NCBI GenBank assembly: GCA_965372385.1
Contig: CBDVCD010000001.1
Location: 1 to 42,519 of the forward strand
DNA length: 42,519 nt
Source of the DNA: an uncultured Gammaproteobacteria bacterium
Lineage (GTDB): Bacteria > Pseudomonadota > Gammaproteobacteria > Chromatiales > Chromatiaceae
Direction: 5' to 3'
Below are positions 4,964 to 42,519 of this stretch, in pieces (position 1 is the first letter of the stretch; the number at the start of each line of letters is the position of its first letter). Below the pieces are notes generated by a model. That model did not search any database and was not told where the DNA came from. It saw only the letters and a program-made list of their open reading frames with translations. The translations under genes and the position numbers were made by a program.

Positions 4964-4970
4964 GATCAAC

Positions 4971-7484
4971 CTACTCCTCCCGCAAAGCCAGGGCCGGCTG
5001 TACCCGGCCCATACGCCAGGCGGGATAGAGCCCAGCCAACAGGGCGGCGCTGAGCGCCAGCAACAGGGCCTCGATTATTGCGCCGGGTGGCAACAGGGTT
5101 GTGATGCTCCAGCCGAAGGAGCGCCGGTTGATCACCTCGATCAGCACCACCGACATCAGCCAGCCCAGGGGCAGGGAGAGTATCCCCGCATAGAGCCCCA
5201 TCAGGCCGGTCTGCAGCAGGGTCAACAGGGTTAGCTGGCCCGGGGTGACGCCGGTGGCGCGCAGCACAGCCTGCTCCCGGGTACGCTCGAGCTGCAGCGC
5301 CATCAGGGCGCTGAGCACCCCGACGAAGGCGACGCCGATCACCAGCAGGCGCAATACCTGAGTGATGGCGAAGGTACGGTCGAAGACCTCCATGGAGTGC
5401 TCGCGGATCTCCCGGTTGGAGCGGATCTGCACCTCCTGCTCCAGGCTGTTCAGCGTCTTGCGTATCGCCTCGATGGCGCTTGCTGTCTCCACTCCCGGTT
5501 GCAGAAACACCCCCAGGGTGGAAAAACCTTTGTCCCCCCACAGCCGGGCATAGGTCGCATGGTCCAGATTGATCACGCCCTGGTCGGAGCCATAGTCGTA
5601 AAACACCCCGCCAATTGGCAGACTCACAGGTCCCTGTGGAGTATGCAGCAGCAGCTCGTCCCCGGTCCTCAGCCGGTGCCTGTAGGCATAGGGCTCGGAG
5701 ATCAACACCACCTCTCCCTTGCGATAACGGGACCAGATATCCGCAACAGGAGAATCAACAAAACCAAAGCCCTTATGGCTCTTAGAGCCCATGTCGATGG
5801 CCATCAGATCCACCGGGCCATACTCGCTGATGACCCGGGTTCGCCGGCCTCCACTGGTCTCCGCCACCCCTGGCACGGACTGAATCAGGGTTCGGGTGGA
5901 GGTCAGCAGGGTGCCATCCGAACCGTTCAAGCGGCTGGAGAGGGCGGAGACATAGATATCGCTGCGCAGGGTATGGCCCAACCAATCCTCCACGGTGGCG
6001 CGGAAACTGGTGATCATGATGCTGACCCCCAGGGTGGTTGCCACCGCCACGCTGAGGGCGGCGATGGAGAGCCCGGTGCGACTCAGGTTGGCGCCGATGC
6101 CACGCAGGGCAAAGCGTGCCAGCAGGCTGCCACGCCCGGCCAGATTGCTGCTGAGCCGGCTTATCAGCACCACCGCCAGAGGCATCAGCAGGCTGTAACC
6201 GGCGATAATCAGGAACAGGCCGGCAAAGCCGCCGGTAAGGCCATTCTCTTCCTGTCTCACCAGCAGCAGTCCGCTCAGCAGGGCGGTTAACCCCAGCAGC
6301 CCCACCCAGGGCAGCCCCCGGTGGACCCGCTGTTCCAGCAGGGAGCGGCGCAGGGCGCTGACCGGGACGGTGCCGGCGGCCTCGATGGCAGGCGCCAGCG
6401 CCGCCAGCAGGGTGATGCCGAGACCGATCAGGATACCCTTGAGCAGCAGCAAGGGCTCCAGCATCAGCTGGGTGACCGTGAGCACAAAGTAGAGATCGTT
6501 GATGGTGCGGGTGACCAGTTGCACCAGGTAGTGGGCGGTAAACACCCCCAACGCCAGCCCCAGGGCAGTACCAATCAGGCCGAGTAGAAAGGCCTCCAGC
6601 AACAGCAGTTGGAACAGGGCCTGGCGGGTGACGCCGAGCAGGCGCAGGGTGGCCAGCAACTGACGGCGGCGCAGCACCGAGAAGGTCATGGTGTTGTAGA
6701 TCAGAAAGGCCCCCACCAGCAGCGCCAGCAGACTCATGGCAGCCAGGTTGGTCTGAAAGGCCTCGATCATCTCAGACATAATCCGGGTGCGGGATTCCGG
6801 CACCTCCAGGCGCAGCCCGGGCGGCAGCTCTTCGGCCAGCCGTTGCGCCTGTTCCGGCTGCAGGATCAGATCGATGCGGTCGAGCCAGCCGGTGTGTTCC
6901 AACAGCTCCTGGGCGGTGCTGATATCGGCCAGCAGCAACCCCTCCAGCACTGCGGGGTTATCCCCCTCCAGCAACCCGGCGATGCGCAGGGTGACCGGCC
7001 GTCCTGCCACGGTAACGTCAAACCTGTCGCCAGGCGTGAGCTCAAGTCGCTCGGCGGTGATGCTCGACAGCAGCACCGTGGCGGGCTCGGTAAACAGCTC
7101 CCTGACCGCCTGCGTACCCAGGCCGACACCGATCTGGCGGAAGGGTGCTTCGGCCAGGGGATCGATGCCGATCAGCTGCAGGTTCTCCACCCCCAGTTTC
7201 ACCAGCCCCTCCACCACCGGGGCGGACTGGCGCAGGCCCCGTTCGATGCGCAGCTCCCGGTAGAAAGACTCGGGAATGCCGCGATGACCGCCGAGGATCT
7301 GGTGGGTGACCCGGCCGGTGAGGGTTTCGGCGGAGAGCAGGAAGGCTTGACGGGCACTCTGATTGGCCAGGTCCACCGCCACGATTACCGTCACCCCGAG
7401 GGCGATGCCGATGATCGACAGCCAGGTCTGCCAGGGATGCCGCCGCAGATGACGCAGGGCGCTGAGCAGCAGCAGACGGTTCAC
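4971..7484 (-). CDS. ABC transporter permease, duplicated FtsX/MacB-type (837 aa)
   Basis: Two FtsX-like 4-TM modules with large extracytoplasmic loops. It overlaps the ATPase gene by 4 nt. Confidence 0.85.
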   Translation of the reverse strand: MNRLLLLSALRHLRRHPWQTWLSIIGIALGVTVIVAVDLANQSARQAFLLSAETLTGRVTHQILGGHRGIPESFYRELRIERGLRQSAPVVEGLVKLGVENLQLIGIDPLAEAPFRQIGVGLGTQAVRELFTEPATVLLSSITAERLELTPGDRFDVTVAGRPVTLRIAGLLEGDNPAVLEGLLLADISTAQELLEHTGWLDRIDLILQPEQAQRLAEELPPGLRLEVPESRTRIMSEMIEAFQTNLAAMSLLALLVGAFLIYNTMTFSVLRRRQLLATLRLLGVTRQALFQLLLLEAFLLGLIGTALGLALGVFTAHYLVQLVTRTINDLYFVLTVTQLMLEPLLLLKGILIGLGITLLAALAPAIEAAGTVPVSALRRSLLEQRVHRGLPWVGLLGLTALLSGLLLVRQEENGLTGGFAGLFLIIAGYSLLMPLAVVLISRLSSNLAGRGSLLARFALRGIGANLSRTGLSIAALSVAVATTLGVSIMITSFRATVEDWLGHTLRSDIYVSALSSRLNGSDGTLLTSTRTLIQSVPGVAETSGGRRTRVISEYGPVDLMAIDMGSKSHKGFGFVDSPVADIWSRYRKGEVVLISEPYAYRHRLRTGDELLLHTPQGPVSLPIGGVFYDYGSDQGVINLDHATYARLWGDKGFSTLGVFLQPGVETASAIEAIRKTLNSLEQEVQIRSNREIREHSMEVFDRTFAITQVLRLLVIGVAFVGVLSALMALQLERTREQAVLRATGVTPGQLTLLTLLQTGLMGLYAGILSLPLGWLMSVVLIEVINRRSFGWSITTLLPPGAIIEALLLALSAALLAGLYPAWRMGRVQPALALREE

Positions 7485-12882: not shown

Positions 12883-13110
12883 TCAGGCAGCTTTCCAGAA
12901 GCTGTTCTGAGAACCAGAACAACGCCAATAATAATTCTTTGGGGGTAGTCAACTAGCGCCTCCAGCCACGAGATATTGTGATGTGCAATTATCGATTAGC
13001 AATATAGGCACAACATGTAGGCCGAGGAGGTGCTAATTAACCACCCCTCTAATTCTTTAACCTTGGGAAGATACAATAAGGGATGTATACCTGCCATGGA
13101 GCCTGCCGTG

Positions 13111-13489
13111 AAGCTGCCCTCGAATAAGACCAAGGGGGACAAGCTCTTTCTGAATGATGGTCTGATTTCACTCAAGGTCGAACAGATTCAGGATAACGAA
13201 GTGCATTGCCAGGTACGCGCTGGAGGGGAGCTGCTGTCACGCAAGGGACTCAATCTGCCGGGTATCGATCTGGGTTTCAGTGCCTTTACCGAGGCAGTTT
13301 TCCTACGGCGTGCACCCGGTCCAGGTGCAGGAGGAGTTTCTGGACTGGGGCCCCTTCTGCTGCAAGTGGCTGCATGACCAGGGATTCGAGAGCGGTGCCG
13401 CCGTACTTACCCAGGGCCCCTCACCGGAAAATCCCTACGCGAGCCACAGCATGGCGATCGCCAATCTGGCCTGTCGAGTGTCGCCTTGA
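13111..13489 (+). pseudogene. pyruvate kinase remnant (B-domain piece joined to the C-terminal ~65 aa; catalytic core deleted)
   Basis: Frame 1 reads GDKLFLNDGLISLKVEQIQDNEVHCQVRAGGELLSRKGLNLPGIDLGFSAFTE. Frame 2 reads from ~13286: LPRQFSYGVHPVQV...GFESGAAVLTQGPSP...SMAIANL. There is no N-terminus and no A-domain. Confidence 0.55.
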
Positions 13490-14723: not shown

Positions 14724-15308
14724 TTATTGAAGATCCTGCAGCAGTGAGATACGCACGGAGGGATCCAGCTCGGATACTGTGTGGTTGTATACCGGATGAT
14801 CTATACCCATGGCGAGTCCTGCCCCACCCTGCAGCGCATCGACCATCTCCTGATTGAGCTCAAAACGCATGAAGTGAACCGCCGAGGTCTTGTCCTCGGT
14901 TTCCCGCTCCAGATCCTCGTTGGCGATAGGACGGACCTTGTCAAAACCCTCGACCTGCACCCAGACCGCCTTGTCGATGCCGATCATTCTGGCCAGGGCC
15001 GCCTTGCGCTCTTCCTCGTCGGCGAATTCGACCATGAAGGTGGCCTTCCAGTTCAATCCGTCCGGGATCAGCGGATTGTAAACATCCAACTCATCCTGGA
15101 TACCTTCGGGTTCGAAGATGCGTTCGATGCGCAGCATCTCCTGCACCTGGTACTGCATGGTCAGAGCATCCTCGAAATAGAGTGCCGCATTGGGTCCGAT
15201 GGGGACGCGGCGGCTCTTTTTGTGCTGCATCACCCGGGCACGGAACTCCGGGCGGATGCGGGCATATTCTTCCAGGCCATAGAGATCTGTATGTGACAAC
15301 TGGCTCAT
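14724..15308 (-). CDS. DUF3501 family protein
   Basis: 194 aa. Pattern YARIRPEFRARVMQHKKSRRVPIGPNAALYFED...MLRIERIF...TSAVHFMRFEL, as I recall for DUF3501. It usually neighbours rubrerythrin and CCG-domain proteins. Confidence 0.65.
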   Translation of the reverse strand: MSQLSHTDLYGLEEYARIRPEFRARVMQHKKSRRVPIGPNAALYFEDALTMQYQVQEMLRIERIFEPEGIQDELDVYNPLIPDGLNWKATFMVEFADEEERKAALARMIGIDKAVWVQVEGFDKVRPIANEDLERETEDKTSAVHFMRFELNQEMVDALQGGAGLAMGIDHPVYNHTVSELDPSVRISLLQDLQ

Positions 15309-15323
15309 TGGTTACTTCTCCCG

Positions 15324-15611
15324 TCACTCGTGGGCAATCGATTTGTCGGTAAACAGGTAATCCTTCAGCTCCTTGTCAAAGCTGGGGTCCTGGCGGCGGA
15401 TCCACTCCAGCAGCATGGATGCGTGTTCTTTTTCCTCGTCCCGGTTATGCGCCAGGATGGCACCCAGTTCCGGGTCGGCGCAAGCGTCCACCCGCTGGTT
15501 GTACCAGTCTACCGCCTCCAACTCTTCCATCAGCGAGACGATGGCCCGGTGCATGTCACGGGTCTCTGCACTCAGTTGTTCTACGGGTTCGTGATAGCCT
15601 TCATTTGCCAT
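15324..15611 (-). CDS. EncFtn-like (encapsulated-ferritin family) ferritin-like protein lacking a C-terminal targeting peptide
   Basis: HEPVEQLSAETRDMHRAIVSLMEELEAVDWYNQRVDACADPELGAILAHNRDEEKEHASMLLEWIRR is nearly collinear with the R. rubrum EncFtn core as I remember it. The protein ends ...LFTDKSIAHE. Confidence 0.7.
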   Translation of the reverse strand: MANEGYHEPVEQLSAETRDMHRAIVSLMEELEAVDWYNQRVDACADPELGAILAHNRDEEKEHASMLLEWIRRQDPSFDKELKDYLFTDKSIAHE

Positions 15612-15629
15612 TTTTTAACTCCTAAGTCT

Positions 15630-16973
15630 TCAGATACCGTACGCCTTGCGCAGCATGCTGATAGGGTGTTCCGGTTCACGACCGTCTTGCAGGCCGCTTT
15701 CGATATGATGGCCGGCCATGGGGCAGTCGCTGCCATAGTGGTCGGCCTGTAGCTGCTTGACCTTGTTCACCACCGGGCGGCCGATCTTCATGGCGTATTC
15801 ATGGAATTCGCTCTTCACCGCATAGGTGCCGTCATGGCCTGAGCAACGTTCAATGATCTCGACCTGGGTATCGGGTATCAGCGAGAGCATCTCCTTGGTC
15901 TTCTGGCCGATGTTCTGCACCCGCTGGTGACAGGCGGCGTGGTAGGCAACCTTGCCCAGGCCCTGTTTGAAATCGGTCTTCAGCTTGCCGTGCTTGTTGC
16001 GAATTATCAGGTATTCGAAGATATCGAAAATTGCCTCCGCGACCTTTTTTACCTGCGCATCATCAGGGAACATCAGTGGCAGTTCCTGTTTGAACATCAG
16101 GGCACAGGAAGGTACCGGGGCGACGATGTCCCAACCCTCGTCCACCAGCTTGGCGAGCACCGGGATGTTGGCGTCCTTGGCCTTCTCCACGGCCTCCAGG
16201 TTGCCCAGTTCCAGTTTCGGCATGCCGCAGCACTGCTCTTTCTCGGCGATGGTCACCGGGATCTCGTTGTGCTCGAACACCGCCACCAGGTCCTCGCCCA
16301 CATGGGGTTCGTTATGGTTGCCATAGCAGGTGGCGAACAGAGCGACCTTGCCTTGCGTTTTCCCCGCGGGATCTCCCTCGGCCTGGATGCTGCGATGATC
16401 GGCCAGGCGGCTACGCAGGGACTTGCTGTGAAACTCCGGCAGTTTGGCCTCTGGGTGGACACCCAGGCCCTGATCCAGGATCTCACGAAAATTCTTTGCC
16501 TTGTTGAGGGCATTGACCACTCCGGAAACCACCGGGATACCCGCCAGCTTACCCAGGTTGTCGGTACTGGTGAGGATGCGATCACGCAGTTTCACGTCAC
16601 CCTTCTGGTACTTGACCGCCTTGGCGCGCAGCATCAGATGGGGAAAGTCGATATTCCACTCATGGGGTGGCGTATAGGGACACTTGGTCATGAAGCAGAG
16701 GTCACACAGATAGCAGTGATCGACCACCTGCCAGTAATCCTGCTTGGCAACTCCATCGACCTCGAAGGTATCCGACTCATCCACCAGGTCGAACAGGGTG
16801 GGAAAACTCTGACACAGACTGACACAACGACGGCAGCCGTGGCACAGGTCGAAGACCCGTTCCAGCTCGGTGAACAGGCTCTCTTCGTTGTAATAATCCG
16901 GGCTTTTCCAGTCGATAGGGTGCCGTGTGGGAGCATCCAGGTTGCCTTCACGCTGGCCTGTGGGTCCTGCCAT
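15630..16973 (-). CDS. (Fe-S)-binding CCG-domain oxidoreductase (HdrD/GlpC-like)
   Basis: Two ferredoxin-type clusters (CHGCRRCVSLC, CYLCDLCFMTKC) and C-terminal Cys-rich CCG-type motifs (EQCCGMP, ERCSGHDG). I prefer ATG 16973 (GAAGAGG upstream) over the track's TTG 16994. Confidence 0.8.
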   Translation of the reverse strand: MAGPTGQREGNLDAPTRHPIDWKSPDYYNEESLFTELERVFDLCHGCRRCVSLCQSFPTLFDLVDESDTFEVDGVAKQDYWQVVDHCYLCDLCFMTKCPYTPPHEWNIDFPHLMLRAKAVKYQKGDVKLRDRILTSTDNLGKLAGIPVVSGVVNALNKAKNFREILDQGLGVHPEAKLPEFHSKSLRSRLADHRSIQAEGDPAGKTQGKVALFATCYGNHNEPHVGEDLVAVFEHNEIPVTIAEKEQCCGMPKLELGNLEAVEKAKDANIPVLAKLVDEGWDIVAPVPSCALMFKQELPLMFPDDAQVKKVAEAIFDIFEYLIIRNKHGKLKTDFKQGLGKVAYHAACHQRVQNIGQKTKEMLSLIPDTQVEIIERCSGHDGTYAVKSEFHEYAMKIGRPVVNKVKQLQADHYGSDCPMAGHHIESGLQDGREPEHPISMLRKAYGI

Positions 16974-17002
16974 GACGAATACCTCTTCAATCAAATAGGT
17001 AT

Positions 17003-17022
17003 GGGCGGCCCGTGGGCCGCCC
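17003..17022 (-). promoter_or_regulatory. GC-rich intercistronic hairpin between the rubrerythrin and Fe-S protein genes
   Basis: gggcggccc-gt-gggccgccc. This could be a partial terminator or an mRNA-stabilising element. Confidence 0.4.
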
Positions 17023-17032
17023 GGAGAAGGAT

Positions 17033-17449
17033 TTATTCCATCTCGTCCAGCGCTCTCTGGTAACGGTTGGCGTGAGAACGCTCGGCCTTGGCCAGGGTCT
17101 CGAACCAGTCGGCCACTTCGTCGAAGCCTTCGTCACGAGCGGTCTTGGCCATACCCGGGTACATGTCGGTGTACTCGTGGGTTTCACCCGCCACAGCAGA
17201 CTTTAGGTTATCGGCGGTGCCGCCAAAGGGCATGCCGGTTGCGGGATCGCCGCACTGCTCCAGGTACTCAAGGTGGCCGTGGGCATGGCCGGTCTCGCCT
17301 TCAGCGGTGGAACGGAACAGGGCTGAAATGTCGTTGTAGCCTTCCACGTCGGCCTTGCCGGCGAAGTAGAGATAACGGCGGTTGGCCTGGGATTCTCCGG
17401 CAAAAGCGTCTTTCAGGTTTTGCTCGGTGTTGCTGCCTTTGAGTTCCAT
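17033..17449 (-). CDS. rubrerythrin-family di-iron protein without a rubredoxin domain (erythrin-like)
   Basis: Two E...ExxH sets (GESQANRRY / [10 protein letters not shown]; AGETHEY / [11 protein letters not shown]). No CxxC pairs. ATG 17449 has GGAG upstream; the track start 17464 is TTG. Confidence 0.85.
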
Positions 17450-17642
17450 AAGGTGGTTCTCCAATAAATTAATGTGGTTATAGCAAGATGGTTGCGCAGG
17501 GATAGTGAGCCCTCCGTGCTTACAAGGATAGCCCTAATCACTTTGAGTACATAATGGTAGTTTCGATGGCACTGATAGCCAGCACCTATTAATCATTTAT
17601 CCAAAAAAAGCGGCCACCCGCCATAGGAAAATCCAAAAACCG

Positions 17643-25928: not shown

Positions 25929-25938
25929 GCATAAAGAT

Positions 25939-26049
25939 GCCGTCGTGGGAGCTGTCCATGGCTGCAACCAAAGGTGGCAAGCCTTTTTGTCATCACTACA
26001 CAAAGCGACTATCGTCGCTATTCGCAGCCATGGGCAGCTCCTACGGAGG
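25939..26049. repeat. 111-bp compound REP-like element (terminal GTAGGAGC...GGC hairpins), copy 1
   Basis: Begins 11 nt after the uvrD stop. By eye it is near-identical to the reverse complement of 36468-36577. Confidence 0.75.
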
Positions 26050-31884: not shown

Positions 31885-32339
31885 TAGTCGACCCGACACT
31901 GTGCAAAAAAATCATCCAGCCCCACCTCTTCCGCATAGGCCTTGAGTACCTTGGGACGAGGGCCCTTATCCTTCACTTCAAATACAGTATCGGGTTCGCT
32001 GGGAACATGAGTATATTTTCCAGCCGGGATCTTGACCGTGGTTTTCGCTCTTGCCGCTTTACGACGACGCTTCACCGACACCTTCTTTTTTGCGGGCGCT
32101 TTTTCCGGTTGCTCCCTTTTTGCTTCTTCTTTATCAATCTTGGTGACGATTCTGCGAATCGTTTTATAGTTGAAACGAACAAATGTTTCGAATGAGAGTC
32201 CTGCCTCCTCCAAAACCTGCGTGATATGCTGATGGGCTCCCTCTAGCGCTTCCCGCTCTTTAGTCTCTTTCTCCTGTTGCTGTTCCAACTTCTCAATTTT
32301 CGCTCGCAGAGCTTCAATTTCTTTTTGCGTATTAGCCAT
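31884..32339 (-). CDS. coiled-coil, lysine-rich small protein (possible nucleoid-associated/H-NS-like; family not recognised)
   Basis: N-terminal heptad-like EIEALRAKIEKLEQQQEKE and a central basic tract KKKVSVKRRRKAARAK. It borders an AT-rich 0.5-kb spacer. Confidence 0.5.
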   Translation of the reverse strand: MANTQKEIEALRAKIEKLEQQQEKETKEREALEGAHQHITQVLEEAGLSFETFVRFNYKTIRRIVTKIDKEEAKREQPEKAPAKKKVSVKRRRKAARAKTTVKIPAGKYTHVPSEPDTVFEVKDKGPRPKVLKAYAEEVGLDDFFAQCRVD

Positions 32340-32480
32340 AATTGTTTAACTTATTTAACCTGTTATTCGGAGCAATTAATTTTAAATTGTTTTTAAGGTA
32401 GTTAACAATACTTTTATGTATCGGTTTAAATGCCAGAATCCATCAACTATTTATTACATAGTCATTGATATCTATTCAAC

Positions 32481-32540
32481 CTAGAATCTGCGGTTGGACG
32501 GGGTAGAGTGTAGAATGGAACGGTCAACTGCAGAATCTAG
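32481..32540. mobile_element. 60-bp minimal copy of family A element (essentially two TIRs back to back)
   Basis: ctagaatctgcggttggacggggtagagtg|tagaatggaacggtcaactgcagaatctag. This equals the 4842-4963 copy minus its 62-bp interior. Flanked by attcaac and gttcaac. Confidence 0.7.
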
Positions 32541-32865
32541 GTTCAACAGTTAAGGAAATAGATAATCGCAACATCTGTTCCCTTGTTCAGATAAAGCTAC
32601 AAATAGAATGAGTGATTACAAAGTGAGAAATTTGGCGAGATTGAGATCAGGCTTGCTGGGCTCATAATAGCAAGAATCTATCAGCGAGATGAACAGTCGA
32701 GTCAAAATTCCGTCGCAATACCAATAATCACATAACATACTGAATAACCTGCCTATAATATTCCACACTGTAAAGATAAACCGATCAACTCAGGAAGGTG
32801 ATTCCGCGACCCTGCAATAGATTTATGTTAGCCTGAAATTAAACTTCCACTCAGGGGGAATCCTG

Positions 32866-33222
32866 ATGAAAAAGAAAGGTTTCAGTAAGTTTGATTTTGA
32901 TTCGATGGTTGCAATTGCGCAAAATAATCCGGACGAGTTCGAGCGTCTGAGGCAACAGGCCATTGATGAATTTATCGAAAATGCCTCCCCTGAGAATCAG
33001 GCGCGGCTGCGTGGACTTCAATGGCGGATCGATCAGGAGCGGAGAAATCGCAGCCCTCTGAGCGCCTGCATAAGGATCTCCGAAATGATGTGGGATCACC
33101 TGCTGGGCTCTCATGGTCTCCTCGCGCATCAGGAGCGATTACTCTATAACAAACATCCGATCGCCAGGGACTCCGCTAAGGTTCTTCGGTTTACAACGAA
33201 CTCTAGTACTCCTTCAAGGTAA
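32866..33222 (+). CDS. DUF3135 family protein
   Basis: FDFDSMVAIAQNNPDEFERLRQQAIDEFI...ARLRGLQWRIDQER. The last codons lie in the agtactccttcaaggt motif. Confidence 0.6.
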   Translation: MKKKGFSKFDFDSMVAIAQNNPDEFERLRQQAIDEFIENASPENQARLRGLQWRIDQERRNRSPLSACIRISEMMWDHLLGSHGLLAHQERLLYNKHPIARDSAKVLRFTTNSSTPSR

Positions 33223-33440
33223 TCACTTAGGCTGCAGCCAGCCAGTCGGGTAGCGGTTAGCTGCTACGCCTACATGGATGTAGGTGGTAGAGCAACGCAT
33301 GGAGCAATTGCCGAGGCGCGCGAGCGACGTACTAACCGTAGCTAATTCGAGCAAGCGCAACAACTCAGATGACCGCTTCCCGGCTGGCCCGAAGGGAGCT
33401 TCCCAAGGCCAATAGAACAACAACTTGCCTCGCAAATAAA
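33204..33440. repeat. ~240-nt structured intergenic element sharing a core with 28386-28651
   Basis: Long-range stem 33237-33257/33372-33388, hairpin cctacat-gg-atgtagg at 33269-33284, and the shared core at 33368-33406. Confidence 0.55.
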
Positions 33441-33511
33441 TTTCTTATATCATTGCGCGCCTTCCCTTGTTCCAAGGGACAATTTTCAACAGTTTTTCAA
33501 GTGAGTCTGTT

Positions 33512-33715
33512 ATGAAAGCGGATATCCATCCTCGTTACGAGGACGTGAAGATCGTATGCAGTTGCGGTAACGAGTTCGTAACCCGTTCGACACTGGGGAA
33601 AAAAGAGCTCCATGTGGAGGTCTGCTCCTCCTGTCACCCCTTCTATACCGGCAAACAGAAGATCGTGGATACCGCCGGCCGTGTTGATAAGTTCCGTAGG
33701 AAATATCATCGCTGA
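33512..33715 (+). CDS. rpmE: 50S ribosomal protein L31 (zinc-ribbon type)
   Basis: [22 protein letters not shown]...[29 protein letters not shown]. Confidence 0.95.
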
Positions 33716-33733
33716 TTCAGCCTGCCACTGGCG

Positions 33734-34561
33734 GTGGTCCTGCGCCGCATCGCTCTCACAGTGACCAGCAAAAGAAGATCCACGAAAAAGGCTCCGCTAT
33801 GCGGGGCCTTTTTTCTTTCCGCCATAGCCCATGGCCTCGTAGTACCGACTGTTTCGTTGGCGGAATGCGCTCCGTTCACGGCTGGCGAGCCCGTGAAGGT
33901 ATCCTATATCTATGACGGAGATACGTTTAAACTTGCCGATGGGCGTAAAATCAGGTTGATCGGCATCAATACACCTGAGCTGGGCCATGACGATCGAGCG
34001 GATGAACCAGGGGCAGAGATGGCCAGACAGCAGCTGAAGGCCATCCTGTCAGCCAGCCAAAACCAGGTACGGCTCAAACTGGGCAGAGAACAGCAAGATC
34101 GCTACAAACGCTATCTCGCGCACCCATACAATCTAGCGGGTAAAAATATTACGGAACTGCTCCTGAAGAAAGGTGCGGGCTACGCCATCACAATCCCGCC
34201 CAACCAGCAAAACCTCGCGTGCTACCAGGAAGCGGAAACAACTGCCAGGACCGCCGATCTTGGCGTCTGGAAGAACGGGCCATCCGTCCGGGATGCGAGT
34301 AAGATGGACGCCCAAGTAGAGGGTTTTTATCTCATCCGGGGACAAATTGAACGCATCGGCAAGAGCCGGCGTGCGCTTTGGTTAAACCTCAGGCAGGGTC
34401 CAGCCATCCGGATCGACTGGACCGATTGGGACAACTTCAAGGGGTGGAACCCGGACGATTTTACCGGAAGACGGCTGGAGGCACGCGGATGGATCTATCG
34501 GCGCAAGGGTCAACAGCGCATGCAAGTCAGGCATCCGGCTGCCATTCAATGGCTGGATTAA
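33734..34561 (+). CDS. thermonuclease (staphylococcal-nuclease/SNase-like) family protein; true start probably downstream of 33815
   Basis: VSYIYDGDTFKLADGRKIRLIGINTPE, the ...RYLAH... SNase core, and a C-terminal extension. The track's GTG start lies upstream of the rpmE terminator. Confidence 0.7.
   Translation: MVLRRIALTVTSKRRSTKKAPLCGAFFLSAIAHGLVVPTVSLAECAPFTAGEPVKVSYIYDGDTFKLADGRKIRLIGINTPELGHDDRADEPGAEMARQQLKAILSASQNQVRLKLGREQQDRYKRYLAHPYNLAGKNITELLLKKGAGYAITIPPNQQNLACYQEAETTARTADLGVWKNGPSVRDASKMDAQVEGFYLIRGQIERIGKSRRALWLNLRQGPAIRIDWTDWDNFKGWNPDDFTGRRLEARGWIYRRKGQQRMQVRHPAAIQWLD
33785..33815 (+). terminator. Rho-independent terminator of rpmE
   Basis: aaaaaggctccgc-tat-gcggggccttttttc: an 8-10 bp stem with one G-U pair, then T6. 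Confidence 0.7.
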
Positions 34562-34640
34562 GGCATTAAGCGCAAATGAGCGACTAACCGGATCTCGTTT
34601 TCACCCCTAGCCAAGCGGATTAAAAACTGTAGGAGCAGCC

Positions 34641-35762
34641 ATGGCCAAGCATATCGGAATACTCACCGCGGGCGGGGATAGTCCTGGACTCAACGCCGCA
34701 ATCAGGGCGGTTGGCAAGGCCGCTCTAGGCCATTATGGCATGCAGGTGATCGGGTTTCGCGATGGCTTTCGGGGACTGGTGGATAACCGCATCACCCGCC
34801 TGGATGGCCAGTTGCTCTCCGGCATACTGACCCGTGGGGGCACGATCCTTGGCACCAGCCGGGACAAGCCACACCGCATGCTGTTCAATGGCAAGAAACA
34901 GGATATGACCGATGTCATCGTGCAAAATTATACATCCAATCAGCTGGATGCCCTGGTCTGTCTTGGGGGAGGCGGTACCCAGAAGAATGCATTACAACTC
35001 ATGGAGAAGGGGCTGAATGTCATCACCCTGCCCAAGACCATCGATAATGATGTAGCCATGACGGACACCACCTTCGGTTTCGATACCGCGCTGGGGATCG
35101 CCACGGATGCTATCGACCGGTTGCACAGCACCGCCCACAGCCACCACCGGATCATCGTGGTTGAAATCATGGGCCACCGTGCCGGCTGGCTGGCACTGGG
35201 GGCAGGCATTGCCGGTGGCGCGGATGTCATTCTGCTGCCTGAACTCGGCTACGACATCGAGAGCGTGGCAGCGGCGATAAAAAGCCGGGTACGCAGCGGT
35301 AAGCCATTCAGCATCGTGGCGGTGGCGGAAGGGGCCTTGCCCAAGGATCAGACCCATCTGCTCAAGACCGCACAGGAGCGAAAGGCCACCGCAGTCGAGA
35401 AAAAGGCACGCAAACTCGCCAAGAGCGAGCTGGCGCAATTGGAAGCCGCCAATGCCAATCACACAGTGACTCTCTCACGGCAACTGGAAGAACTGACCGG
35501 CCTGGAATCACGTGTGACCATCCTCGGACACCTGCAACGTGGTGGTACGCCTTCGGCGGCGGACAGGCTTTTAGCGACCCGCCTGGGAACTGCTTGCACA
35601 GACCTGATCCAGGAGGGCCGGTTCGGTGTCATGGTCGCCTCCCAGGGTGAACAGGCGGTGCCCGTTCCATTGACAGAGGTGGCTGGTAATAAAAAACTGG
35701 TGCCGGAAGACCACCCATGGATCCTTAGCGCCAAGCGGCTGGGTACCTCTTTCGGTGATTGA
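34641..35762 (+). CDS. pfk: 6-phosphofructokinase (PFK family; ATP versus PPi dependence not decidable by eye)
   Basis: [43 protein letters not shown]. Confidence 0.85.
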
Positions 35763-35920
35763 GGCGCTTTAAGCTCTGCAATACCTTGAAACCCCCAGAT
35801 TCTGCTATTTTTTGGCTGGATATTGATCGCCATCAATAGTTAAGAGCGGTTTTTGGGTACAGAAAGCCGAATTTTGAGTAACAATATTCCTTTCAGGAAC
35901 ACTACGGAAAAGAAATACTC

Positions 35921-36430
35921 ATGAACAATCAATCCAGTGAAGTACCGTCGATGATCACCAACCGAAAAATGCTCCAGGATTCACCCATTGGCCGTGAATT
36001 GAGTCCTGAACAATGCGACAAACTCGCCGAGGTAGTCGCCGTGCTCTGTCTGAAGGAAGGAGACTATCTGCTGGAAGAGGCACATCAAGACGAAATCTTG
36101 TATGTCATCGTGGATGGGCGACTGGAAGTGGTTAAATGCACCGCACTGGACGATTGTATTACGTTGCAACTACTGCGTCAGGGCGATATGGCGGGAGAAC
36201 TGGGCTTCATCGATGGCCAGCCTCACAGTGCCGGTCTGCGTGCGCTGGGTAACTGCACGGTCTTCAGCCTGGAGCGCAGTGCGCTGGAGGCGTTTCTGAG
36301 CACAGATCCCGATCTGGTCTACAAAGTGATGCGGTCAATCATCCGCACCGTCCATGTCATTCTGCGCAACATGAACCTGCAGCATGTCGAAATGATGAAC
36401 TATATCGGCAAACGGCATGGCCGATACTAG
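35921..36430 (+). CDS. cyclic-nucleotide-binding domain protein
   Basis: cNMP-binding pattern ...GDYLLEEAHQDEILYVIVDGRLEV...GDMAGELGFIDGQPHSAGLRA. Confidence 0.7.
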   Translation: MNNQSSEVPSMITNRKMLQDSPIGRELSPEQCDKLAEVVAVLCLKEGDYLLEEAHQDEILYVIVDGRLEVVKCTALDDCITLQLLRQGDMAGELGFIDGQPHSAGLRALGNCTVFSLERSALEAFLSTDPDLVYKVMRSIIRTVHVILRNMNLQHVEMMNYIGKRHGRY

Positions 36431-36467
36431 AAAAAACATATCCATCGTACCGAAAGTAACTTTTCAG

Positions 36468-36577
36468 CCTCCGTAGGAGCTGCCCGTGGCTGCGATCAGC
36501 GACGATAGTCGCTTTGTGTGAAGATACCGAAAAGGCCGCCACCCTTAGTCGCGGCCATGGGCCGCTCCTACGACGGC
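36468..36577. repeat. 110-bp compound REP-like element, copy 2 (inverted relative to 25939-26049)
   Basis: Starts 38 nt after the stop at 36430. Confidence 0.75.
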
Positions 36578-36667
36578 ATTCTCCGTGTGATGATATGGAC
36601 ATGACATAGGGAGCTGAATGGTTACCGCAATTATTTAAATAACCCCTATTTGATTCAGGAGGAGACG

Positions 36668-37456
36668 ATGAGAAGGTTTCTATTGAGCTGGATCTTGCTC
36701 TGTTTTTCCGCTGGCGCTATTGCTGAGATCGTAGGCAAAGCCGTGGCGTACCAGGCCGGGGGCAAAAACTTTAAGGGCTACCTCGCCTATGATGACGCGA
36801 TTGAAGGCAAGCGCCCGGGCATCCTGGTAGTACATGAGTGGTGGGGGCACAACGAATACGCACGGGAGCGGGCCCGCATGCTGGCGAAGCAAGGCTATAC
36901 CGCCCTGGCAGTGGATATGTATGGCGATGGCAAGCAGGCCAGCCATCCGGATGACGCCGGTCGTTTTGCCGGTGAAGTGAAAAAGAATATGGGCCAGGCA
37001 ACCTTGCGCTTCATTGCCGCCGATAATTTCCTGCAATCACAGCCAAGCGTGGATGCCGCAAAGATCTCCGCCATCGGCTACTGCTTTGGTGGAGGCATCG
37101 TGTTGGAGATGGCGCGGCGTGGCATGGATCTGGACGCAGTTGCCAGTTTCCACGGCAGCTTGGGAACCGAATACCCGGCTAAGGCCGGTACCGTCAGGGC
37201 CGTAGTATTGGTCTATAACGGCGTGGACGACCCCTTCGTCAAGCCGGAGCAGATCGCTGCGTTCAAGGCCGAGATGAACGAGGCGGGAGTGGATTACAGC
37301 TTCATCAACTACCCTGGCGCCAAACACTCATTCACCAATCCAGGCGCTGACGAATTTGGCCAGCAGTTTAACCTCCCACTAGCGTACCACAAGGAGGCGG
37401 ACGAAAAATCGTGGACCTCTCTGCTGGAAGAACTGGACTCTATTTATAGCCACTAA
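36668..37456 (+). CDS. dienelactone hydrolase family protein (secreted)
   Basis: ATG 36668 with AGGAGG upstream. Signal peptide MRRFLLSWILLCFSAGAIA. Also PGILVVHEWWG and the nucleophile-elbow-like GYCFGG. Confidence 0.8.
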   Translation: MRRFLLSWILLCFSAGAIAEIVGKAVAYQAGGKNFKGYLAYDDAIEGKRPGILVVHEWWGHNEYARERARMLAKQGYTALAVDMYGDGKQASHPDDAGRFAGEVKKNMGQATLRFIAADNFLQSQPSVDAAKISAIGYCFGGGIVLEMARRGMDLDAVASFHGSLGTEYPAKAGTVRAVVLVYNGVDDPFVKPEQIAAFKAEMNEAGVDYSFINYPGAKHSFTNPGADEFGQQFNLPLAYHKEADEKSWTSLLEELDSIYSH

Positions 37457-37731
37457 AAAAAGATCCTGGCCCAGGCAAGCAGATAGAGAATCCAGAAGAG
37501 GAGGGCATATGGCCCGGGATGATTCTCGGAGCCATAATCCCTGGCCAATACCTCGGGAAAACCAAAGCCCGCGAAATAGGCAATCATCCGATAGAAGAGG
37601 ATGAGCAGCAGCAAGATAAACAGCACAGAACTCTGCCCCAGGGCCTTGTCGAACTCATCCCTGACGAAGAGATAGATCGCGGTAAAGAGAAAGAGCCCGA
37701 TCGCGACCTTTTGGTGTCTGTCCAGATGCAT
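37453..37731 (-). CDS. small hypothetical membrane protein
   Basis: 92 aa with three hydrophobic segments. No family recognised. Confidence 0.4.
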   Translation of the reverse strand: MHLDRHQKVAIGLFLFTAIYLFVRDEFDKALGQSSVLFILLLLILFYRMIAYFAGFGFPEVLARDYGSENHPGPYALLFWILYLLAWARIFF

Positions 37732-38017
37732 CGATAGACTTATGCTTGGCTAAATTGGTAATCCCACCATTTGAGTCGTCCGGTTGGACGCAAAGCTTAG
37801 TCTCGACACTTCCCTCGATTATGCTGAACTCCACTCAGACCCTCTTGATACTTAAGTATGACCCCTTCGATTTTTTCATATGAAATTAGATGGATATTAA
37901 TCACTTACTTTTTGTAGTAGTATTCTAACCGCTTGCCCTTCTCTTTTTCTTTCCACGGAAATCCAGACCGGTGGGTGCTGAAGAGCATGAACTGGACAAC
38001 GATAAGGGGAAGTCATT

Positions 38018-39350
38018 ATGAGTATACAAAGGTTCAAATCCAGCTGTTTCAAGGGCTTGAGGCAACCACAAGGGCATTCTACTCCAAGCAAATCCATTCG
38101 CTTGCTGCGCCTCAGCTTACTCGTCCTTGCCCTGGGACTGATGGTGTCGCACCTGACTCTGGTCATGGCCAAGAACCAGGACAGCGACAACAGGGGCAAG
38201 CCGGTACCATCCACCAATCCGGTAATATCCACCAATGTCGAGATTTACGATGACGGCGCGAGTGGCACCGGCGGTGATTGCAGCACCGGAACAAATCCGA
38301 TCGGCAGCTGGGACGCCTCCAGCAAGACCTGCACCCTGATCCGGGACGTCGATGCCGCAATCCTCATCCACGACCCCAATAATACACAGTTCGGTGTGAC
38401 ACTCGACGGTGACGAATATGCGGTCAACCTGCCCCAGGATGGCTCGGTCACGATAGAAGGAAGCAATCACACCCTCGAAGATCTGACCATCAATGGATAT
38501 TCTGCGGATGAGTCTTCCGGCGCTGGGGTCTATCTGTCTGATGCCTATTCAGTCACCGTAACTGACATTGAGGTGACGAATACTGTAGTGGGCATCACCT
38601 TTCATGCCTCCATGAACAGCATCGTCAGCGACAGCACCTTTTCCGGGGTTCGAACCGGCGCCAATCTTAATGGCACCTACCACCAGTATTACTGCGAAGA
38701 AGAGGGCTACCTCCCTTACTGTGGGGCCAGCAACAATACCCTTGAGAACAACACCTTCTCGCACAACTCGACTGATCATGATGGTTATGGCATCTATTTA
38801 GGTTTCGCAGCCCGGGACAATACCATCAGGGGCAACACCATCTCCGGTTTCAATTAGGCTATGTCTGCGTTAAGTGTTGGAACAAATCTAACCTCTTGAT
38901 TTTTCACGACCTACCTTTAGTTTGCAATTTACTTTAATTTCAATAAGTTAGTGTCACTTGAAATCGAAATCAACACTTAACGCACACATAGCCTTCAATT
39001 ATGGGGTGTACATACCTGACTGGTATTGTTCCTACATCTATACCAGCTATTCATCCTGTCAGGATGGCAACACTGTCTATCAGAACAGCTTCATAGACAA
39101 TTTCATCGACGACTACACCACCAGTTTCAAAACACAGATCTATGCCGACTGGGGCTACACGACCACCGTCTTCAATCTGGATGCGCCTGACGGCGGCAAC
39201 TACTTCAATGATTTCGATGAGCCGGCCGAGGGCTGCGAAGATGCCAATGGCGATGGTTTCTGTGACATCTGCTATTACGGCAAGAATACCTACGACTGTT
39301 TGCCATGGACAACAGAGGAGGGCTGGTCACCCGAAGATGATGACGATTAG
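38018..39350 (+). pseudogene. right-handed parallel beta-helix (PbH1/NosD-like) repeat protein gene, interrupted by a MITE
   Basis: ORFs 38018-38857 and 38994-39350. Repeats of the form NTxxxNxxxG (LEDLTINGY, VTVTDIEVTNTVVGITF, NNTLENNTFSHN, DNTIRGNTISGFN). Deleting 38857-39001 fuses them as ...ISGFNYGVYIPDW.... Confidence 0.75.
38857..38993. mobile_element. 137-bp MITE (family B) with 23-bp TIRs and an 8-bp TTCAATTA target-site duplication
   Basis: TIR-L ggctatgtctgcgttaagtgttg and TIR-R caacacttaacgcacacatagcc (22/23). TSD copies at 38849-38856 and 38994-39001. AT-rich interior with no ORF. Confidence 0.85.
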
Positions 39351-39374
39351 CACGAGTACTCCTTAAGGTACGAC

Positions 39375-39400
39375 TAATAGTGGTCAACTGAGGATTTTAG
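39375..39400. repeat. solo right end of family A element ('gagg' subtype)
   Basis: taatagtggtcaactgaggattttag followed by gttcaat. It matches the right end at 41713-41731. I found no left end upstream. Confidence 0.55.
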
Positions 39401-39797
39401 GTTCAATGAAGGGTGGGCATTGCCCACTATTACAATGATAGATCGAGAGGTATTGGGTGGGCTGTGCCCAGCCTACTTGATCTATCTGGAATTCAATCAT
39501 AGTGGATTCCAAAAACAGCTCATGAATTTCGTTTTGTGCTGTATTTTATCGCGAAATAAAGCTTCAGGACGCCGCCTGACTCCCACCATTAAACGGTCCC
39601 GCTTGCGCCTAACGGGGTAGGGGCCGCACAATTTTCCGAACGCCACAGCCAGCGATGACATACCGTCCAGGCATAAAAATAACGATTCGTATTCGAAGCT
39701 GTACTCACTCCGCGAACCACTTATTTTTCCGTTTGGACCGCGACATCCGCCCAACTGTGGCCTCACTGCTCTCTGACTGAGACACGGGGTAGACAGG

Positions 39798-40859
39798 ATG
39801 CAGATAACCGGCATGCAATGGGGCGCAAAGCTCCTCAATTATGTGGACTTTCCCACTTCAGAGGTGCTGGGGCCGGAAGCCACCAGTGAACAGAACAAGG
39901 ACCTCATCGACCGCTATGGCATGAGCACCCTGGAGTTGAATCCGATCCGCATGATGCCGAAAAAAGGCCGGCTGATCCCGGTGGCCTGTGACTTCAAGTG
40001 CGCCTTCGACACCGACACCCCGCCTGGAAGCGGCTGGAGCTGCCTGCCAGCCTGGACTCCTCCAACTACTCCGATTTCGAGCTGGAGGTGAACGAACTGC
40101 GCACCTATCAGGGCCAGTCGAATGTGTTCGTCACCAACGAGCTGGGCTCGGTCACCGCCATGACCTTTGGCGGGGGTGCCAACGCCCTGGTCACCGAACT
40201 GCTCGGTGAGGCGGGCAGCATCTCCTCGGATTTCGGCGGCAACCCCCCTTACGAGAAGATGTATGAGATCAGCCGCATCGTCTACAAGCACTGGCTGGAT
40301 CAGAGCAACGTGCTGTTCATCATCGGCGGCAAGGCCAACAACACCGACATCTACACTACCTTCCGAGCGATGGCGGAGGCCCTGCGGGACTACTTCAACA
40401 GCCATGTCTATTCCGGTGGCAACGTGGTGTGCGGCACCATGCCAGGACGCTCCGGTGCGGTGCTGAAGACCGAGCTGGGGGACATCCCGGTCTACAATTC
40501 GGTGGTGGAGGCCCTGGAGGCTGACCACCACTTCAACGTAGCAGTGGTTCATGGAGAAGTTCGGCGTGGACGGCATCTATACGGCCGATAATCCAGTCTG
40601 CTCCACCAAGGGCGCGGTAGTAACCAATATTGCCGATATACCGACCGCCATGACTGCGGTCATGGCGCTGAATCAGGCCACACCCGATTTCGACTCCAGG
40701 GGCGATCTCTCCCTGAAGTGCTGGTTTGCCGATGATCTTGGGGACCTACTACTACCGCCCGAGCTGGATATTCAGCCGGTGCAGGCGGTCTCCCCCTATG
40801 GCGAACAGATCAAACTGGTGAACGATCAGATAGGGGTATCTTCCCCCGCCAAAGCATGA
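39798..40859 (+). pseudogene. ATP-citrate-lyase beta / succinyl-CoA-synthetase-beta-like gene, 5'-truncated with two frameshifts
   Basis: Aligns with my memory of ACLY: STLELNPI..., then FVTNELGSVTAMTFGGGANALVTELLG...DFGGNPPYEKMYEISRIV...LFIIGGKANNTDIYTTFRAMAEALRDYF. Frame changes occur near 40018-40021 (a C4 run) and 40542-40550. The ATP-grasp N-terminal ~200 aa are absent, and frame 0 has a stop at 39774. Confidence 0.7.
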
Positions 40860-42104
40860 AGGATGCCTCAGGCGCCTCCATGATGGACCCAAAGAGCCAG
40901 ATCACCCGCCTGTTCGGGATCAGTGTCCTGGATGTGGCTACCCACTCCTATGAGGATAATCTGGTGCTCTCCCTGATTCGGGAATATCCCGACAGCAACA
41001 GCCGCGCCCTCGCCAACGTCGCGCTGAATGCCTATATCAACCTGCACGACACACCCATGCTCACGGCGGCCTATGCAGCGCGCCAAGCGGGTAACAGCCC
41101 GAATACATCACTCTGCGCCGCCCTGAGCATCATTGGCCCAGGCATGGTGGCGGGTGCTAGAGAGAGCGCCCGGGCAATGCTCGACCTGTTTCGAAAATCC
41201 GGTCTTGCTGACCCGGCGGATGAGGAGTTCGATCTGCAACCCCTGCTCCAGCAAACCCAGGAGGAAGAGGCCATCGCCCATTTCATCGGCAGCGAAGAGG
41301 ATGAACGCGCCAGGATCATGCTCGACGGCACCGCCGCGCGGGGGGCGAACTCTGTGTTCCTGCGTTACCTTCAGCTATTGCAGCAGGAAACCAACAGCTT
41401 CATCAGCGCCGACGCCGTACTGGCGGCGATCTGTTGCCATCTGGCCTGGAAACCTCTGCTGCACAAACGGCTCTCGGTCACCACGCTGTTCAACCTAGAA
41501 ACCTCAGTTGAACACCGTGAAGGGTGCGCTTGTGGTGGTGCAGGGCAAGGCACAACGACGCGGAATAGTTGTTCTATTGCAAGGAGTTGTAACGCAGGCT
41601 TGCGCCGCCACAAGCGTGCCATTCGCAGTGTAGCGTTGCTCACCCAATAGGTGAAACCTTTCGATACTGATAAAAAACTTATTTTTTCAAAGCGATTAAC
41701 GCAGTACATAGCGGTCAACTGAGGATTCTAGGTTCAACATGCCCTGGCATCTGCGCATCTTCTCCGCCGCTTTGGGGGCCTCGGTGCGTAGCGAACGCCA
41801 GACCGAAACCTCTTTTGGTGGAGTTTTGATGGAAGAGCTGGTCAAGGCCCTGGCCAGCTACGGGGTAAGCCGCAACATCTATTGCGTCAACATCGACGCG
41901 GTGATCGCGGTGATCCTGCTGAAGATGTTATGGCGACCCTTCGTGGCGGGTGAGATCGACGAGCAGTTCCTGGAGTATGGCGCCTTCACCACCTTCGTCT
42001 ACGGACGTATGGTGGGCGAGGCGGCGGAGATCGAAGACCACACCAACCGTGGCCACAATATGGATACCCGCACCCCAGCCAGTCAGTGCCGGTTTGTCAA
42101 TTAG
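40856..42104 (+). pseudogene. citrate-synthase-like / citryl-CoA-lyase-like domain gene (ACL C-terminal-domain homologue), interrupted by a MITE
   Basis: ORFs 40856-41650 and 41739-42104. The tail NIYCVNIDAVIAVILLKML...GAFTTFVYGRMVGEAAEIEDH resembles the ACLY/citrate-synthase C-terminus. Removing 41495-41738 gives one 334-codon ORF. The ATGA overlap with the upstream gene suggests coupling. Confidence 0.65.
41495..41731. mobile_element. 237-bp MITE (family A, 'gagg' subtype) with 19-bp TIRs, flanked by direct GTTCAAC copies
   Basis: TIR-L ctagaaacctcagttgaac and TIR-R ggtcaactgaggattctag (17/19). GTTCAAC at 41488-41494 and 41732-41738. There is an internal stem gcgcttgtggtggtgcagg/cttgcgccgccacaagcg. 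Confidence 0.8.
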
Positions 42105-42235
42105 CCTCCCCCCTGACAGGAGGGAGGTATTAAGTGTTTTCTCCCTGACAGAGCGAGGTATTAAGTTCCTCCCCCCTCGGCAGGGGGTGGCAAAAAAGTC
42201 CCTTCCCCCTTGCAGGGGGGAGGTTAGGAGGGGGG
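42105..42235. repeat. tandem array of four ~30-bp C-run/G-run hairpin units (REP/BIME-like)
   Basis: Units: cctcccccctgacaggagggagg, tccctgacagagcgagg, ccccctcggcaggggg, cccccttgcagggggg. The first two are each followed by gtattaagt. Confidence 0.7.
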
Positions 42236-42246
42236 TAATCTTTCAC

Positions 42247-42519
42247 TCAATGCGACGGAATAAACTGATAGCGGTGCACCATGTGGACAAAATCCTGCAA
42301 GGCTTTGATGTTGGTCGCCTCAGCCTGCGCACACCACTGCCGCAGGGCCTCCAGCCGTATCCCATGACTTGACGCCTTCTGCTCCCAGATCTCATGCAGT
42401 CGCAACTTGAATTGATAGACGGTGGCAAGTACTGAGCTCTGATCCAGCACCTCACCCAGCCTGATGCGTTCAACATCACTCAAAAGTACCGTCTCCCGCC
42501 GCGCCATCCGCTGGGCATA
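42247..42519 (-). CDS. C-terminal part of a protein running off the window. It resembles the C-terminal extension I associate with proteobacterial fatty-acid desaturase-family proteins (low certainty).
   Basis: The frame stays open to the window edge (YAQRMARRETVLL...). The motif LRQWCAQAEATNIKALQDF is recalled from memory only. Confidence 0.4.
   Translation of the reverse strand, partial: YAQRMARRETVLLSDVERIRLGEVLDQSSVLATVYQFKLRLHEIWEQKASSHGIRLEALRQWCAQAEATNIKALQDFVHMVHRYQFIPSH

Follow-up and report, generated by a model that had tools for sequence, protein, structure and literature searches.

The window analysed here is a 42,519-nucleotide stretch of an uncultured gammaproteobacterium (assembly GCA_965372385.1, contig CBDVCD010000001.1), and the locus under study, at positions 39798-42104 of its forward strand, carries sequence related to ATP-citrate lyase (ACL), the citrate-cleaving enzyme of the reverse tricarboxylic acid (TCA) cycle. 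Five short open reading frames (ORFs) of 97, 197, 102, 264 and 121 aa occupy the region in two alternating frames, and the sole Pfam match among the five was to Citrate_bind (PF16114, E=3e-9) on the ORF at 39998-40591. With the frames repaired, the translation of the first part found its best solved structure in 6hxq_B, the large subunit of Hydrogenobacter thermophilus citryl-CoA synthetase (residues 188-349, E=5.8e-13), and also matched human ACLY, and the sequence directly downstream in the same translation matched residues 36-93 of succinyl-CoA synthetase alpha chains. Beta and alpha queries from the intact genome locus L008 hit the region with E-values of 8e-77 and 3e-120, respectively (tblastn against the 42.5-kb window), and searches of this window with intact relatives found no ACL-like sequence outside 39798-42101. 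A preliminary description, made from the sequence letters alone, had assigned the first gene to the ACL-beta/SucC family, and these matches bear that assignment out. We read the locus, at a probability of about 0.9, as what is left of a type II ACL operon of two genes that became a pseudogene only recently. Since the remnant reaches 8e-77 and 3e-120 against L008, as opposed to 1e-6 to 1e-13 against the solved structures of type I ACL and citryl-CoA synthetase (CCS), and nests inside the type II tree, its homology places it nearer to type II aclBA than to type I ACL, to CCS and citryl-CoA lyase (CCL) or to succinyl-CoA synthetase.

A query with the second part of the locus returned 372 homologues of 500-585 aa, and the family was found in at least 434 species-representative genomes, with Chromatiaceae, Sedimenticolaceae, Magnetococcales, Nitrospirota, Nitrospinota, Thermodesulfobacteriota, Burkholderiales and some Alphaproteobacteria among the matches listed. 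In L008 and L011, which are the closest genome loci, the operon consists of a beta ORF (425-431 aa, 425 in L008) and, after it, one fused alpha ORF (920-922 aa, 920 in L008), and L001 and L002 have three genes, encoding beta (~425 aa), alpha-N (326-374 aa) and alpha-C (509-576 aa). The alpha chain was a single ORF of ~920 aa in gammaproteobacterial loci (L008, L011 and L025) and was cut at the linker into two genes elsewhere, as in L002, where a 51-nt gap separates them. The 346-kb ENA contig L211 carries the ACL region at full length, with 76-90% nucleotide identity to the window.

The L008 beta chain contains two Pfam domains, ATP-grasp_2 (residues 53-197) and Citrate_bind, and residues 37-304 of its alpha chain align to the small subunit of citryl-CoA synthetase (6hxq_A, E=9e-36), including the phosphohistidine motif GHAGAI at alpha 284-289; further along, alpha 641-913 matched NCBIfam citryl-CoA lyase models (E=6.8e-9). 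Searched as a single sequence against solved structures, the citrate-synthase-like ORF of the window gave no direct match, and a 10-sequence profile of this part reached only E=0.16 (6hxp). An AlphaFold2 model of the C-terminal module of the homologue P0005 (61 sequences, pLDDT 89.3, pTM 0.90) matched citrate synthases, methylcitrate synthases and the citryl-CoA lyase 6hxp at a Foldseek probability of 1.0, and the C-terminal module of the intact family is, on this model, predicted to adopt a citrate-synthase fold. The module (~510 aa) aligns along entire citrate synthases, beyond the short CCL core, and was present at its full length of ~1.8 kb in all 80 of the 80 best genome loci. The ancestral operon would have encoded an aclB-like beta chain of ~425 aa, composed of an ATP-grasp domain and a citrate-binding domain, and a fused aclA-like alpha chain of ~920 aa, composed of a CoA-binding part, a phosphohistidine/CoA-ligase part, a linker and a citryl-CoA lyase module of citrate-synthase fold. 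No clue to the reverse TCA (rTCA) pathway was found next to the ACL genes of L008 and L011, the neighbours being unrelated housekeeping genes.

Mapping by tblastn with the L008 proteins and by blastn against L211 points to seven lesions, comprising four internal deletions, two single-base deletions and the insertion of a miniature inverted-repeat transposable element (MITE). The intact operon spans 4112 nt and the remnant without the MITE 2063 nt, so that ~2.05 kb is gone, with 48% of beta and 53% of alpha retained. Every deletion junction lies at a direct repeat of 4-8 nt, and the intact relatives show one copy of it at either end of the segment that was lost (TACGGCA, ACCAG, TGGT and CTGGT).

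In the beta part (all segments described here and below are on the forward strand unless otherwise stated), the start codon and aclB-like codons 1-41 lie at 39798-39921 in the frame of 39798 and agree with L008 beta 1-41 at 32 of the 41 residues (78%). The start region is 87.6% identical in nucleotides to L211 6177-6352, with homology starting 52 nt before the ATG, and we take ATG 39798 to be the authentic beta start. The N-terminus of beta had been described as lost; it survives, and the loss (codons 42-188) is internal. This first deletion (junction at 39914-39921, repeat CTATGGCA) removed 441 nt in frame, corresponding to beta ~42-188 and the ATP-grasp core; the blastn pieces against L211 overlap there by 8 nt, L211 6353-6793 is absent from the window, and in L008 the sequence TACGGCA stands on either side. 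Beta ~189-222, the end of the ATP-grasp domain, follows at 39922-40021 (78% identity to L008 beta 182-222 by tblastn) and ends on the C4 run at 40018-40021, where a 1-nt deletion, the only gap in a 488-column alignment to L211, constitutes the first frameshift, at the very run where the preliminary description had put its first frame change. The citrate-binding domain (beta 222-349), to which the PF16114 and 6hxq_B matches belong, occupies 40019-40400 and is 80% identical to L008. Beta thus keeps this domain and no complete ATP-grasp domain. At the second deletion junction (40396-40400, repeat ACCAG), ~410 nt were lost, comprising the beta C-terminus (350-425), the intergenic spacer and alpha 1-55, and beta is fused to alpha. 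Stop codons follow both frameshifts.

The alpha part begins with a SucD-like CoA-binding fragment, alpha 56-106 at 40396-40548, which is 75% identical to L008 alpha 56-107 and matches residues 36-93 of SucD 2yv2_A and residues 34-86 of CcsB 6hxq_A. The third deletion (junction at 40545-40548, repeat TGGT) cost ~590 nt, or alpha ~107-300, shifted the frame and took out the Succ_CoA_lig domain with the GHAGAI phosphohistidine motif. The preliminary description had its second frame change at ~40545, and the frame does change there, although at a deletion junction within alpha and not by a simple frameshift; its statement that no SucD or alpha sequence lies between the two genes holds for the phosphohistidine part but not for alpha 56-106 and alpha 301-398, which are both present. 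The latter, the linker from the CoA-ligase part to the citrate-synthase-fold module, lies at 40542-40837, is 67% identical to L008 alpha 301-404 and matches the N-terminal extension of P0002 and P0056. A further 1-nt deletion, at 40837-40838, had escaped the earlier count of only two frame changes; this second frameshift is polymorphic among assemblies.

The first half of the citrate-synthase-fold module, alpha 399-617, follows at 40838-41493 (62% identity to L008), and beyond the MITE alpha 617-652 continues at 41733-41843 (tblastn against L008). The fourth deletion (junction at 41838-41842, repeat CTGGT), which does not appear in the preliminary description, removed 534-546 nt in frame (alpha 653-830) from the citrate-synthase-like part, and with them the near-invariant motifs NGPGTISAQGAKG, HTGYAHGGNG, NHP(I/V)FKG and DPRE (L008 alpha 688-810). 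HTGYAHGGNG and NHPVFKG are presumably the two catalytic His motifs of citrate synthase, as judged in part from a hidden Markov model alignment to 6hxp; the conserved His-containing motifs of the C-terminal module are not retained in the window. The last segment, alpha 831-920 with the stop codon, lies at 41844-42104 and is 82% identical to L008, 90% to L005/P0026 and 90.5% in nucleotides to L211. What had been taken for a second gene is MITE-disrupted, as described, but is not a separate gene, since position 40856 is no boundary in the closest relatives, where alpha is one ORF of 920 aa. Because the ATP-binding core, the phosphate-carrying catalytic His and two of three presumed lyase catalytic motifs are physically absent, the remnant as sequenced should be incapable of giving an active citrate-cleaving enzyme.

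The MITE that splits the citrate-synthase-like part is 239 bp long (41494-41732), has the ends CCTAG...CTAGG and lies between the two copies of a 5-bp target duplication (TTCAA, 41489-41493 and 41733-41737). Its terminal inverted repeats (CCTAGAAACCTCAGTTGA and complement) are identical at 16 of 17 positions after the first base, and its internal hairpin is strong (z = -7.2). At the homologous position in L211, blastn found TTCAA once, that is, an empty site, and excision of the MITE in silico restored TTLFNMPWH as in the relatives. The 239 bp hold no transposase gene, only read-through ORFs crossing the element. A structured RNA or an intron as the identity of the insertion was rejected, there being no Rfam match in 39000-42519. 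A repeat-motif scan of metagenome contigs returned at least 120 loci, at least 30 of them with element bodies 72-95% identical, and six complete copies have differing 5-bp duplications. Because contig L212, ~95% identical to the window, has a full copy of the family at 6493-6727 (76% identical, duplication ATTAT) between its SNase and PFK genes, a place at which the window has no element (34565-34568; an insertion polymorphism), the family appears to have moved recently in this lineage. A solo right end of the MITE (24 bp, 39377-39400, 22 of 24 positions identical) is followed by G and TTCAA, the very pentamer that the full copy, 2 kb further on, has as its target duplication; this end may represent an old rearrangement or a deleted element. 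At 4864-4966 of the window, ~100 bp are 84% identical to part of the L212 copy and are likely to be a further fragment of such an element.

The lesions recur in two assemblies from different samples, L006 (ERZ25073603 NODE_4344, coverage 12) and L007 (ERZ25748748 NODE_1946, coverage 5.5), which are 99.95% and 99.87% identical to the window, with 1 substitution over 8.9 kb and 12 over 11.3 kb, respectively. These single-nucleotide polymorphism (SNP) differences indicate that L006 and L007 were built from independent reads. The population is also represented in a third ENA assembly, ERZ25749332, at a coverage of ~24.6. Both share with the window the four deletions, the C4 state (without gaps) and the MITE. 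The sole structural difference concerns the G after 40837, which is missing in the window and L007 and present in L006 and the protein fragment P0137, where it restores IGVIFPRQSMKD as in the relatives and the sequence reads GGGGTGATC; the frameshift at 40837 is best described as a segregating polymorphism in an already dead gene. Judged from these comparisons, the disabling lesions are real and reproduced in independent data, with sequencing error excluded for practical purposes. The coding SNPs among strains, a very small count, were nonsynonymous in four of four cases. The differences between the window and L007 were unevenly placed, five of the 12 lying within 41055-41645 (600 bp of pseudogene and MITE) and none, synonymous sites included, within the 9 kb of upstream intact genes at 32011-41054, a clustering denser than simple neutrality predicts.

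Rates of nonsynonymous (dN) and synonymous (dS) substitution were compared on 297 ungapped codons, and the values are rough, given the indel errors of L211 and a dS to L008 near saturation. Between the window and L211, dN was 0.035 and dS 0.49 (dN/dS 0.07), and dN/dS between L211 and L008 was 0.10. The dN to L008 was 0.117 for the window and 0.109 for L211, which suggests a slight nonsynonymous excess on the window branch. A dN/dS of 0.07 implies that nearly all of the divergence arose under purifying selection, and by this rough estimate the operon would have died recently and then quickly lost half its length. The signals of constraint pull in two directions, all four SNPs being nonsynonymous and a frameshift segregating, yet with the dN/dS of 0.07 against L211, and the numbers are small. 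The lesions may have accumulated once selection on the operon had ceased, the four deletions of ~0.4-0.6 kb probably arising by slippage or illegitimate recombination between the short direct repeats.

Several points count against a recently dead pseudogene. The closest full-length reference, L211, belongs to an assembly with fragmented genes, probably through long-read indel errors, to judge from its split gene calls, and the exact deletion lengths (410, 590 and 551 nt) may for this reason be off by a few bases. In three cases out of four the deletion preserves the reading frame, a possible hint of selection for a shortened product, for which we calculate a chance probability of ~11%. The SNP counts are very small, and the pseudogene status was read from sequence.

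As to the host, the window UvrD shares 84% identity with its counterparts in tubeworm endosymbionts (Escarpia and Ridgeia) and in Candidatus Thiodiazotropha, and 89-93% with those in Chromatiales/Pseudomonadota metagenome-assembled genomes, which suggests a Sedimenticolaceae-like gammaproteobacterium near the tubeworm and lucinid symbionts. The other genes of the window are ordinary chromosomal genes. In a neighbour-joining tree of the retained alpha segments, which is rough and carries no support values, the remnant grouped with L008, L009 and a Chromatiaceae-rich clade, and fell outside the ACL clade of the Lamellibrachia symbiont and Sedimenticolaceae.

That sequencing or assembly errors produced the frame changes and the genes are in truth intact, as the position of one of them in a C4 homopolymer might suggest and as the preliminary description had allowed for, is highly improbable: the C4 state, the four deletions and the MITE recur in two assemblies of other samples that differ by SNPs, and ~2 kb of coding sequence is still missing after the frames are repaired. 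Less credible still is a novel minimal two-gene system resembling ACL or CCS/CCL that works without a separate alpha subunit, the fallback offered should the frameshifts prove artefacts. It could draw on the in-frame deletions and on the 62-90% identity of the remaining pieces to functional relatives, but this identity is explained by recent death; the ATP-grasp core, GHAGAI, HTGYAHGGNG and NHPVFKG are absent, stops lie behind both frameshifts, the MITE splits the last module, and none of the 80 best genome loci lacks the full-length ~1.8-kb module. The fallback is refuted because even the repaired product has no ATP-grasp core, no phosphohistidine loop and only one of three presumed catalytic motifs. 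There is slightly more room, though still very little, for a dead enzyme of which a surviving ORF, such as the one at 40856-41650 (264 aa) or at 41739-42104 (121 aa), now serves some other, non-catalytic purpose and is retained for it. These ORFs do occur in several assemblies; the 264-aa ORF, however, terminates by read-through into the MITE, all four strain SNPs within it change amino acids, in one strain the indel polymorphism fuses it with the sequence upstream, and no constraint is seen beyond what would be inherited from a recent functional ancestor.

A pseudogene remnant would be compatible with a functional ACL of some sort, be it type I, type II or CCS/CCL, elsewhere in the genome, the remnant being a defunct second copy, and we regard this as possible, with the odds leaning against it. 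The remnant groups with the Chromatiaceae-like clade (L008 and L009), away from the ACL clade of the host taxa suggested by UvrD, and it sits amid mobile-element debris outside any rTCA gene cluster, whereas the ACL of the Lamellibrachia symbiont (L025) has an Hdr/Flx-like ORF upstream and a monomeric isocitrate dehydrogenase (IDH) downstream, a cluster described in PMC11636981. A query with the beta chain of that symbiont gave many candidates at 74-97% identity, of which one (P0331) was traced, but to other samples; the source genome was not among the matches listed in the genome-wide scan, the 42.5-kb window holds no further ACL, and the GC content of the remnant (59.4%) equals that of housekeeping genes (59-60% for uvrD, pfk and hemN) and bears no mark of recent foreign origin. 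GC was dropped as a sign of such an origin for this reason. The view of the preliminary description that survives these comparisons is that of a degraded, defunct ACL-like citrate-cleavage locus, about half of the operon being gone and the lesions recurring in independent assemblies.

The remnant is flanked by a disrupted beta-helix gene, the solo MITE end, hairpins resembling repetitive extragenic palindromic (REP) elements and an ISL3-family transposase fragment. The last of these lies on the reverse strand at 42247-42507 (Pfam DDE_Tnp_ISL3, E=2.9e-9, profile positions 126-196 of 240), and in L007 the ISL3 piece was called within one ORF with a fatty-acid desaturase. Between the ACL stop and this fragment, at 42105-42240, stand three or four C-rich/G-rich hairpins of the type CCTCCCCCCTGACAGGAGGGAGG with a REP-like look. 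Synteny with contig L216 extends to 39361 and breaks off there, a little short of the solo MITE end; L216 is rearranged from the end of the beta-helix gene onward, and contig L212 ends in the same place. A comparison of the flanks of 80 intact loci with those of the window found no common genes except one Crp-like ORF near L025.

The beta-helix gene, of the NosD-like parallel type, contains a second, unrelated MITE of 137 bp (38857-38993), which splits it into ORFs at 38018-38857 and 38958-39350; the gene is intact in P0269 (418 aa). The inverted repeat of this element is GGCTATGT(C/G)TGCGTTAAGTGTTG (23 of 24 positions), its target duplication is the 8-bp TTCAATTA, and its site is empty in L212 and L216. 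A hairpin-forming repeat of ~108 bp, probably another REP/MITE-like element, occurs twice in inverted orientation, after uvrD (25938-26045) and between the Crp-like and DLH genes (36472-36578), and is found in L216 at 83% identity. At 13030-13377, a 115-aa ORF matches only positions 118-176 of 328 of the pyruvate kinase barrel (E=3.5e-10); it lies between a LysR gene and a VKOR gene, in a gap that at 640 bp has no room for a whole pyruvate kinase, and is probably another gene fragment. A cluster encoding a DUF3501 protein, a CCG-domain protein and a rubrerythrin occupies 14724-17464 on the reverse strand and adjoins a Fer2-domain protein. GC content across the window ranges from 0.46 to 0.66.

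The remnant is worthless as evidence for reverse-TCA carbon fixation in this bacterium. Automated annotation could score ACL and the reductive TCA cycle from the Citrate_bind match and the 'citrate synthase'-like ORF, and the proper entry for this locus is 'absent'. In a lineage that appears to sit near symbionts with two carbon-fixation pathways, a type II ACL that died so recently would mean either a trait being lost or a redundant copy being purged on short timescales. It may tentatively be suggested that a free-living relative of the two-pathway tubeworm symbionts and the lucinid symbionts has only just lost reverse-TCA citrate cleavage, the operon itself possibly having been acquired laterally, since the remnant belongs to a Chromatiaceae-like clade. 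If so, the locus would be a dated snapshot of the gain and shedding of the combination of the Calvin-Benson-Bassham and rTCA cycles within Sedimenticolaceae. It also offers a clean worked example of fast operon shrinkage, with seven lesions and half the length gone while the surviving codons show a dN/dS of 0.07. The locus is nevertheless an ordinary young pseudogene, a further example of an already known kind, and nothing in it would surprise a specialist.

Hugler and Sievert (2011), cited here through PMC3522073, PMC4914600 and PMC6194059, proposed type II ACL for Endoriftia, and reports from seep tubeworm symbionts and from Thiomargarita have followed. In gene pair and domain order the remnant agrees with the type II ACL of Magnetococcus, Thiomargarita and the tubeworm symbionts, Candidatus Endoriftia persephone among them. 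Beta has 424 aa in the Lamellibrachia symbiont and 425 aa in L008, the closest genome relative of the remnant, and the surviving alpha segments used in the tree are ~55% identical to those of that symbiont (L025). In contrast to the tubeworm-symbiont enzyme, the locus described here is a gutted pseudogene of another sub-clade (L008, L009 and Chromatiaceae), and it does not lie within the Hdr-Flx/kor/IDH rTCA cluster described for Riftia symbionts (PMC11636981).

Among solved structures, the best match was to CcsAB of Hydrogenobacter thermophilus (6HXQ; E=5.8e-13 for the beta piece and 9e-36 for the N-terminal part of the relatives' alpha), and the C-terminal module of the relatives shares the fold of CCL and citrate synthase with H. 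thermophilus Ccl (6HXP). The intact family differs from CcsAB and Ccl in fusing CcsB-like and Ccl-like parts in one 920-aa chain with a linker of ~100 aa, and its lyase module of ~510 aa aligns along whole citrate synthases, compared with a CCL chain of 256 residues; deletions have removed the catalytic parts from the copy in the window. Type I ACL (AclAB of Chlorobium limicola, 6HXJ, and human ACLY) shares the overall chemistry and domain logic but gave weaker matches (E=2e-7 to 2e-11) and is far more distant, with a shorter AclA of ~610 aa. Bacterial pseudogenes are said to decay by deletional bias, an idea generally credited to Mira, Ochman and Moran in 2001. The remnant follows the same course, with medium-sized deletions at short repeats, small indels and the insertion of a mobile element in a gene no longer under selection, and is unusual only in the number of its lesions relative to a very low substitutional age.

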